From: a virus
Direction: 5' to 3' (one strand)
DNA: 64,000 nucleotides
Virus record (IMG/VR): IMGVR_UViG_3300045988_051359
Position 1 is the stretch's first letter, and each line of letters starts with the position of its first letter. The notes under the pieces are model-generated. The model had not been told where the DNA came from and searched no databases. It was given only the letters and a program-made list of their open reading frames with translations. Position numbers and translations under genes: made by a program. This document shows, piece after piece, positions 58,266-58,942 of this stretch.

Positions 58266-58292
58266 GTCAAAGTGATTTAGTTAATTAATAAG

Positions 58293-58805
58293 TGGACCAT
58301 CGCGGACTCGAACCGCGGTCTTCACAACTCTAAATAATAAGATTACGTATATCTCTATTTTATTACATCAGCTGTTGAGTTCAGCATGTAGATAGTTTTA
58401 TTAGAAGAGCCAGATTCTTTATAAGTGGACTCATCTGACACCTTTCCACTTAACTAATTTACAAGCTACCAAAATTAGGGAGTGACCGAAGTCCCACGCC
58501 ACCACTCCATTTACGTTGGAGAACGTCTATTTGTAACCCATAGATAGGTAGTGGAGATTTCAGCTTTACTAACCTTTGGCGTTCAAGTTAAGTGGGCTGC
58601 TCTATATGCTTCTTCCCACACCTCTTCTGTTTCTAGGTCTCCCCATTAACCCGACTTAATCAATATAATATCGATAAGCCACAGCTTACGCTGCCATTCT
58701 TACTTCAGTGTTGCCACTTAAAATTTGTGTATCATTTTAAAGAGTTGGTACGAACTCTACACGTCTTACTACCCAGTCATTATGAATCAATTCCATGTAT
58801 GGCCC
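58293..58805 (-). ncRNA. candidate large structured RNA with tRNA-like 3' end (tmRNA-like topology?)
   Basis: Perfect T-arm CGCGG-TTCGAGT-CCGCG plus acceptor 3' strand ATGGTCC at 58294-58317. A complementary GGGCCAT lies ~510 nt away at 58799-58805, followed by '...CATGGAATTGATTC' reminiscent of the tmRNA 5' 'CUGGAUUCGAC'. No ORF ≥60 aa on either strand in 58266-58942. Confidence 0.25.
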
Positions 58806-58942
58806 ATAGTAGCATGATTATACTCTCATGCCAGGAGTGGGAAACAACCCAAAGCTTTCAGTATCCTCCTGTGCCACTGGCGTACCCATTTCAGACTTAA
58901 AAGCTTATTAATAAAATGAAAGATGAATATAGCCACAGAATG

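Follow-up and report, generated by a model that had tools for sequence, protein, structure and literature searches.

Transfer-messenger RNA (tmRNA, encoded by ssrA) is already known as a kind of gene carried by phages. Huge phages carry tmRNA and SmpB (Al-Shayeb 2020, PMC7162821), 402 of 18,146 phage genomes (reported as 2.3%) proved to carry a tmRNA in an ARAGORN survey (PMC9004378), and the OM43 phage Melnitz has a two-piece tmRNA together with a glutamine riboswitch (PMC9004378). Mycobacteriophage DS6A encodes a tmRNA derivative with a tRNA-like domain and no coding sequence for a tag, which is reported to inhibit endogenous tmRNA in Escherichia coli (summarized in PMC11915505). Counts of phage tmRNAs and Pharokka-type annotation depend on ARAGORN (PMC9004378, PMC12291355, PMC13503771, PMC7162821), and the 2025 tmRNA database uses ARAGORN and BLASTN as its primary finders and takes viruses from RefSeq only (PMC11915505).

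Here we describe a 677-bp gap between genes at positions 58266-58942 of the IMG/VR virus record IMGVR_UViG_3300045988_051359, a stretch of 64,000 nucleotides that was analyzed as a whole and is called the window below. We put the probability that this gap encodes a phage-borne one-piece tmRNA at about 0.88. The identity and boundaries of the gene, the structural constraint on its RNA, a tag frame that is both open and conserved, and the spread of the gene through a phage lineage are all matters of observation. Like bacterial one-piece tmRNAs, the RNA contains, in order, an acceptor strand with the G3:U70 wobble, a D-loop analogue, H2, a putative PK1 pseudoknot region, a tag, H5, further domains and a T arm. 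Unlike them, it is viral, lies beside a tRNA array and behind a structured leader that is exclusive to its family, has a mosaic PK2-PK4 region and an Arg or Lys at tag position -4, and has an encoded CCA in only 3 of 62 distinct complete homologues (59 lack it).

As with earlier phage tmRNAs, the gene accompanies tRNA and other translation-related genes; unlike those, all of which were found with ARAGORN, the present family goes uncounted in such surveys. A structured RNA is attached to the tmRNA gene in Melnitz as well, but the present tmRNA is one-piece and not permuted, and its leader matches no known riboswitch or ribozyme family. The family appears to be undescribed, and the literature on tmRNA in crAss-like phages yielded no description of such a gene. 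It represents a new, oversized and ARAGORN-invisible lineage of phage tmRNA, with most of the residual novelty lying in the leader RNA.

Identity and architecture of the tmRNA gene

Positions 58290-58805 of the minus strand matched the Rfam tmRNA model RF00023 over the full model (positions 1-374) with 55.7 bits, compared to a gathering score of 47; the E-value was 3.7e-19 in a search of the whole window and 5.7e-21 in a search of 1 kb. No other Rfam family matched the gap at E <= 1, including RNase P and Y RNA, which a preliminary description of the locus had listed with RF00023 as models to search. That description had seen in the gap a tmRNA-like topology, a tRNA-like domain split around a long insert. 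This topology goes far beyond what chance would give, and is borne out by the RF00023 score and by an arrangement that is conserved, with compensatory changes, in the 62 homologues. A complete gene lies inside the gap, but does not fill it: the gap consists of a 27-nt trailer, a 513-nt RNA (58293-58805) and a 137-nt leader (58806-58942).

The mature coding region (58293..58805, minus strand, as are all features below unless noted) extends from G1 to the discriminator A, with support from the RF00023 match, from an nhmmer family profile that covers the tmRNA end to end and, for the 5' end, from ARAGORN on a shortened molecule. In RNA numbering, G1 is 58805 and A513 is 58293. The 3' trailer (CUUAUUAAUUAACUAAAUCACUUUGAC, 58266..58292) runs up to the ATG of a ParB-like gene, and no terminator-like site was found in it. 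The longest open reading frames (ORFs) in the gap, counting both strands, have 57, 36, 32 and 30 aa, in agreement with the earlier statement that none reaches 60 aa, and no small protein gene fits the region.

In the acceptor stem, GGGCCAU (nt 1-7, 58799..58805) pairs with AUGGUCC (nt 506-512, 58294-58300), and the discriminator A follows at 58293. The preliminary description had proposed this 7-bp pairing with one G:U from a distant complement, here 513 nt upstream, and had recognized the T arm and acceptor 3' strand, both of which are present at 58294-58317. The sole wobble in the stem is G3:U70 (U510 in the window RNA), the identity pair by which alanyl-tRNA synthetase (AlaRS) selects alanine tRNA and tmRNA. 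All seven pairs, the G3:U wobble and the discriminator A are found in 62 of 62 homologues, across five acceptor stems (GGGCCAU, GGGCCUA, GGGCCUG, and GGGCUUG with two different partners). The poor score of this stem in the helix count reported below stems from a one-column shift of the 5' ends by MAFFT, which a per-sequence check corrects.

The T arm, CGCGG-UUCGAGU-CCGCG (nt 489-505, 58301-58317; helix 22), has a stem that is 100% paired in the family, with both sides changed in four of its five pairs. There are 12 different T arms, with a loop of UUCGANU in 59 of 62 sequences and UUUGAUU in the other three. At the 5' end, the D-loop analogue ACAUGGAAUUGA (nt 8-19, 58787..58798) aligns to the RF00023 consensus ucuGGaUUCGAC; the likeness to the tmRNA 5' consensus noted earlier for the segment after the complement is likewise real, with ACAUGGAAUUGAUUC aligning to cuGGaUUCGAC. 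Within the analogue, conservation reaches at least 90% for T11, G12 and G13 and is complete for T16, T17, G18 and A19; the near-invariant GG, within UGGAAUUGA, is kept in at least 90%. H2 is formed by nt 20-47 (58759..58786) with nt 456-485 (58321..58350); its three helices (2-4) are 92%, 83% and 100% paired, and both sides have changed in 13 of 25 pairs. Conservation of structure in homologous phages, on which the preliminary description had staked its proposal, thus extends, through compensatory changes, to the acceptor and the T arm, to H2 and H5 and to a number of helices further downstream.

PK1 (nt 48-77, 58729..58758) begins with the stem AGAGUU/AACUCU (helix 5), which is 90.6% paired but invariant. 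A second stem of 3 bp (helix 6) is proposed between the loop GUA and a downstream UAC, where one pair covaries (U-A to C-G in four sequences); we infer the pseudoknot itself. The tag frame at nt 91-120 (58686..58715), GGC AAC ACU GAA GUA AGA AUG GCA GCG UAA, encodes GNTEVRMAA followed by a stop, and its end, AUG GCA GCG UAA at 58686-58697, is the "MAA-stop" frame that had already been spotted. When run on shortened constructs, ARAGORN reports the same resume codon (nt 91) and the same tag. H5 (nt 112-153, 58653..58694) holds the stop codon in the loop of GCAGC-GUAA-GCUGU (helix 7, 100% paired and invariant), followed by an 11-bp hairpin (helix 8, 82% paired, four pairs changed on both sides).

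Fourteen tag variants occur among the homologues, with 9, 10 or 11 codons (27, 30 or 33 nt), and the frame is unbroken in every one. The first codon is invariably GCN or GGN and the end is invariably R/K-M-A-A and then UAA, with RMAA in 60 of 62 members and KMAA in the other two. The window's tag, GNTEVRMAA, is shared by 17 distinct sequences; the others are GNTTYRMAA, GNTEVKMAA, GNTRVKMAA, ANTSVRMAA, AEIAPVRMAA, AERSD(V/Y)RMAA, AERSEYRMAA, A(T/A)YSEVRMAA, AEIDYNRMAA, GETEGFRMAA and GETEGYLRMAA. Changes in length by threes and an unbroken frame are expected if the frame is translated, and this pattern argues against a non-coding decoy. The universal R/K-M-A-A ending suggests that the fate of tagged proteins may also be under selection. 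A bacterial APVRMAA tag from a high-GC genome (locus L184) was considered as a relative and rejected, its sequence being unrelated.

The extra length of the RNA comes from an expanded, mosaic PK2-PK4 domain (nt 154-440, 287 nt, 58366..58652). In the RF00023 alignment it appears as a 133-nt insertion compared to 39 model positions, along with several smaller insertions. Between lineages, alternative modules that cannot be aligned share the same slots, with insertions of 30-90 nt, and the combinations of modules cut across the types of tRNA-like domain, which suggests recombination between co-infecting phages. H5b and several 3'-domain helices are individually supported. In window RNA numbering, the supported helices are 154-160/215-221 (96% paired), 168-171/183-186 (98%), 187-191/210-214 (79%, every pair covarying), 285-289/297-301 (96%), 336-340/411-415 (99.7%), 348-352/402-406 (84%, four pairs covarying) and 418-424/432-440 (95%). 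Two proposed H-type pseudoknots (helices 13-14 and 19-20) found no family-wide support and were dropped. A hairpin of about 30 nt with G:U pairs, GGUUUGGAAGC-GUCA-GCUUCUGAACC, occurs at one insertion spot (columns ~454-514 of the alignment A1) in sporadic lineages (e.g., L014, L009, L013, L038, L041, L033, L057 and L065), with a tandem duplicate in L029.

Helix support was counted for a 121-pair structure that was written by hand from the window sequence and laid over an unfitted MAFFT alignment (A1); automatic helix finding by counting pair types was too noisy in such G:U-rich sequence. Standard pairs filled 84.1% of 7133 cells, compared to 32-43% when the 3' partners were slid by 1-3 columns. 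Pairs changed on both sides numbered 56 vs. 20-28 in the slid controls, and the covariation score was 0.231 vs. 0.05-0.07. None of 500 shuffles reached the observed values.

Relatives, detection and the upstream leader

Relatives were collected with three exact-pattern scans of IMG/VR (T arm plus acceptor, a central 23-mer, and the tag end), giving loci L003-L095. The nhmmer profile finds the element in 94 loci, 79 of them full length or nearly so, with 62 distinct complete sequences of 507-601 nt. They lie on about 90 viral contigs from the human gut, mostly of 90-192 kb (one of 270 kb); a cluster at 183-192 kb probably represents complete genomes. Some sample identifiers may be those of Human Microbiome Project stool samples. 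A blastn search of GenBank phages returned just two unannotated human-faecal scaffolds with homologues. The tmRNA element is always embedded in, or adjacent to, a tRNA array that has the same orientation.

The RF00023 gathering score was passed by 25 of 32 full-length homologues tested, at 58-86 bits, and the window's subgroup contains the weakest scorers; detection with Rfam is uneven, yet better than with ARAGORN. The latter called a tmRNA in none of 60 native loci and in none of the 62 full-length sequences with CCA appended. For the window RNA, adding CCA alone still gave no call, while deleting nt 222-335 (399 nt left) did, with the 5' end unchanged. Trimmed to their first 200 and last 150 nt, all 62 were called by ARAGORN, with 5' ends and tags that match the hand reading exactly. 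As calls return on shortening, the failure is due to length, not to absent features.

For comparison, 185,579 species genomes were scanned for tmRNA-type 3' ends in GGUCCA, yielding at least 120 loci, of which 93 tmRNAs called by ARAGORN form the comparison set. The bacterial tmRNAs among the matches listed have 334-399 nt (median 349, n = 93) vs. 507-601 nt for the phage RNAs, which are thus 110-270 nt longer than listed bacterial tmRNAs that share this type of 3' end. None of the at least 120 bacterial loci listed resembles the phage RNA beyond its tRNA-like parts.

Two family members deviate in their T-arm region. In L067 (IMGVR_UViG_3300045988_023864), an 865-bp group I intron at 7751-8615 interrupts the T loop as UU|CGAGU (RF00028, 94.4 bits, E 1e-24; -1 U and omega G), and splicing restores UUCGAGU; the intron holds a 194-aa ORF on the opposite strand (7955-8539). 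Such an intron fits an expressed RNA gene with a spliced transcript. Group I introns in the T loop are known from bacterial tmRNA genes (PMC11915505), which this copy resembles; it differs in being from a phage and, by our count, in an insertion between loop nt 2 and 3, and the window copy is intron-free. We found no report in the literature of an intron in a phage tmRNA. In L045 (~7933-7990), a GC-rich hairpin and a T-run resembling a terminator follow the T stem in place of the 3' acceptor strand; this is either a truncated, probably dead copy or a junction created by assembly or recombination.

In the window and in several lineages, a conserved structured leader of about 100 nt (58806-58906 in the window) immediately precedes the tmRNA. 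Its stem-loop domain (58852..58906) consists of P1 (AAGCUUU/AAAGCUU), which encloses AAGUC..AAUGGGUA, a hairpin P2, and ACAGGAGGAUACUG. The segments AAGUC..AAUGGGUA and ACAGGARGAUACUG are invariant, four lineages carry compensatory changes in P1 and P2, and a variable linker leads to a further hairpin, P4. The latter, GGCAUGA-GAGUAUAA-UCAUGCU (58811..58832), ends 5 nt before G1, a spacing of 5-9 nt across lineages. Its stem covaries (GGCACGA/UCGUGCC in L024; GUGCAG/CUGCAC in L040, L033, L025 and L057), and the loop GAG(U/G)AUAA is kept among homologues. A scan of 2.9 million IMG/VR contigs gave 21 matches to the pattern AATGGGTA-N(6-30)-ACAGGARGATACTG, each of them upstream of this tmRNA family, and no further copy of the leader motif or of a P4-type hairpin was found within the window.

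A search of Rfam with the leader (161 nt) at E <= 10 returned noise alone, at 12-16 bits. The P4 loop GAGUAUAA contains TATAAT and was considered as a sigma-70-type or general phage promoter; a consensus scan found none on this strand, and the motif and the adjoining CTCCTGGC are not repeated elsewhere in the window. Compensatory changes in the stem, including G:U pairs, point to RNA structure; a -10 element could nonetheless lie some 15 nt ahead of G1. The leader may serve as a signal for processing, as a regulator, as a ribozyme or as an unusual promoter.

The gap is flanked by the ParB-like ORF (57465-58265) and by a 78-aa ORF (58943-59179). The stop codon of the latter is TAG (58943-58945), and a 36-aa leader ORF continues in the same frame (58826-59179), such that amber suppression would lengthen the 78-aa protein by about 39 residues, to a TGA within the leader hairpin. 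The shared frame is probably a coincidence, since covariation in the leader is of the RNA type. Other window genes with matches to phage families encode a Dda-like helicase, NrdD and an RNA ligase (685-2073).

The window contains 27 tRNA genes called by ARAGORN, spread over 30.4-56.7 kb and, like the tmRNA, encoded on the minus strand throughout. A RAGATH-34 motif (RF03103, 86.9 bits; 56665-56762) ends 5 nt inside the 5' end of tRNA-Pro(agg) (56598-56669) and recurs in L004, L005, L006, L009, L012, L013, L014 and L068. RAGATH-1 hammerheads (L009:285-358 and L030:444-516) and pistol ribozymes (L076:3518-3589 and L075:1907-1980) also occur, and the related phages are rich in such small ribozyme-associated motifs near tRNA arrays. 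In addition, ARAGORN reports tRNA-like genes with unassignable anticodon loops (L040 10277-10371, L057 7111-7205, L029 8366-8441 and L025 10115-10206), with odd anticodons in the related arrays of four bases (ttag, tttt) or two (ct). These may be intron-containing genes, frameshift-suppressor-like tRNAs or artefacts.

Proposed function, rival explanations and host

The following steps are modeled on established tmRNA biology, from which we carry over the charging of the RNA, its dependence on SmpB, its tagging and processing, and the advantage that the phage would gain. Like the 27 tRNA genes downstream, the tmRNA would be transcribed from the minus strand, and its precursor would be trimmed at G1, presumably by RNase P, and after the discriminator A. 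A CCA-adding enzyme would then supply the CCA, as phage tRNAs need, and the host AlaRS would charge the RNA with alanine via G3:U70. Together with EF-Tu and SmpB, presumably the host's, the charged RNA would enter ribosomes stalled on broken or stop-less mRNAs and donate its alanine. The ribosome would switch to the GGC..UAA frame and complete a chain ending in A-GNTEVRMAA, after which normal termination would free it. The phage would benefit by keeping ribosomes available. Non-stop complexes during infection could arise from host mRNA decay, from defence nucleases that cut RNA, or from read-through by an amber suppressor.

An amber-suppressor tRNA (anticodon CUA, labeled tRNA-Pyl by ARAGORN) is encoded at 52262-52334. 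Within the limited flanks available, a suppressor tRNA near the tmRNA is seen only in the window and four close relatives (L005, L009, L013 and L014). The window gives no sign of TAG recoding: TAG is the stop codon of 11 of 67 ORFs, and little is gained when it is read as sense. As TAG is still used as a stop here, any recoding concerns genes beyond the window. Ueda et al. are said to have found in 2002 that suppressor tRNAs raise SsrA tagging in E. coli, and we hypothesize a link between the suppressor tRNA and ribosome rescue. A phage with 27 tRNAs, an RNA ligase and an amber suppressor invests in continued translation.

Several observations weigh against a functional tmRNA. The window copy is just 9 bits over the Rfam threshold, and ARAGORN called no tmRNA in the window. 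The gene's 3' end has CUU after the discriminator A, so that CCA is not encoded. In about half of the family, the second stem of PK1 is either missing or out of alignment, and the proposed knot-forming stems of helices 19 and 20 are only 42-59% paired over the whole alignment, the latter because modules differ between lineages. Among the 93 listed bacterial tags, just one ends in RMAA, and the R or K at -4 is atypical, which makes recognition by host proteases uncertain. A tblastn search with E. coli SmpB found no SmpB gene either in the window or across ~930 kb of related loci, where the best E-value was 0.43, and function would rest on a host factor of uncertain compatibility.

With regard to the 3' end, many bacterial tRNA and tmRNA genes lack an encoded CCA, and a gene can be classed as tmRNA without one. 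The 27 tRNA genes in the window all lack it as well, mostly with C after the discriminator and then a sequence other than CA. With no CCA encoded in tmRNA or tRNA genes, it must be added post-transcriptionally; the tRNA genes (30396-56669) and the tmRNA (58290-58292) all depend on a CCA-adding enzyme, and none was identified in the window. With regard to SmpB, this query does detect 38 SmpB genes next to bacterial ssrA, with E-values of 1e-16 to 1e-39. An IMG/VR scan with an SmpB alignment gave at least 80 loci; among the matches listed all are 89-100% identical to E. coli SmpB, mostly at contig ends, and these apparently mark prophage boundaries. In GenBank phages, tblastn found SmpB in 68 records, including at least 15 Prevotella phages, and the records of the present lineage there are fragments. 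We infer that the phage uses the SmpB, AlaRS and EF-Tu of its host.

Some of these points would also suit a tmRNA-derived decoy that binds SmpB, AlaRS or ribosomes and so inhibits or diverts host trans-translation, with the large body and odd tag reflecting that role. The DS6A RNA is a precedent, and a body 110-270 nt larger than in bacteria, a tag end that is rare there and the lack of a visible phage SmpB would all be in keeping with it. We nevertheless consider a decoy unlikely: DS6A is reported to lack a tag frame, whereas here the frame is intact and conserved along with the resume-codon context, the stop codon and H5, and tag length varies across 14 variants by multiples of three only, as expected only if it is translated. 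Still less probable is a decaying, non-functional relic, either a host ssrA acquired by the phage or an ssrA fragment of the attP type. In its favor, ssrA is a frequent integration site of prophages, which then bear the 3' end of the gene; among the SmpB matches listed, numerous E. coli prophage contigs stop at smpB, beside ssrA; and the L045 copy has lost its 3' acceptor strand. However, the gene is full length, truncation affects just 1 of 79 copies in the full-length range, and all tRNA-like identity elements are kept in 62 of 62 copies through compensatory changes, which largely refutes this explanation; furthermore, none of the at least 120 bacterial loci listed (3' ends GGUCCA) matches beyond a generic T arm.

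The lack of an ARAGORN call and the ORFs of 30-57 aa in the gap could also point to another large tRNA-like non-coding RNA, or to small protein genes, that merely resemble a tmRNA. We give this the lowest probability of all, as ARAGORN fails solely on account of length, Rfam offers no other match at E <= 1, and the small ORFs overlap covarying helices and are lost in homologues with alternative modules.

For the tmRNA itself, a host in the Bacteroidota is a reasonable lean from sequence comparison, not a result. Among the 93 listed bacterial tmRNAs, Gly-initial tags ending in YA(L/M)AA occur almost only in Bacteroidota, such as GETNYALAA and GENNFALAA in Bacteroides, GNTTYAMAA in Chitinophagaceae and GNTQYAMAA in Saprospirales, while Lachnospiraceae and other Eubacteriales have Ala-initial tags (e.g., AEDNLAYAA). 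The phage tag GNTTYRMAA is one residue apart from that of Chitinophagaceae. Summed identities of the 5' and 3' segments are highest for Bacteroidota among the matches listed, but marginally so (1.40-1.30 vs. 1.30 for Lachnospiraceae). The nearest annotated relatives of the Dda-like helicase are from crAss-like phages and a Bacteroides phage, at ~30% identity.

A bolder proposal, which we regard as speculative and rather improbable, is that leader, mosaic expansion and tmRNA together make up a regulated, phage-specific form of trans-translation, in which the leader is a new class of cis-acting RNA and the tag reroutes proteins. If so, the leader, as a ribozyme, riboswitch or protein-binding switch, would control maturation or timing of the tmRNA. 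The R/K-M-A-A tag would give proteins a fate unlike that of the host YA(L/M)AA tags, for example escape from a host adaptor or protease, or alternatively the deliberate destruction of read-through products of the amber suppressor.

More generally, since members of this family exceed ~500 nt and escape ARAGORN entirely, ribosome rescue by phages is likely under-counted in the gut virome. Studies of tmRNA could also draw on the natural variants in this family, among them 14 tags with a fixed R/K-M-A-A end, interchangeable pseudoknot modules and a copy with an intron.

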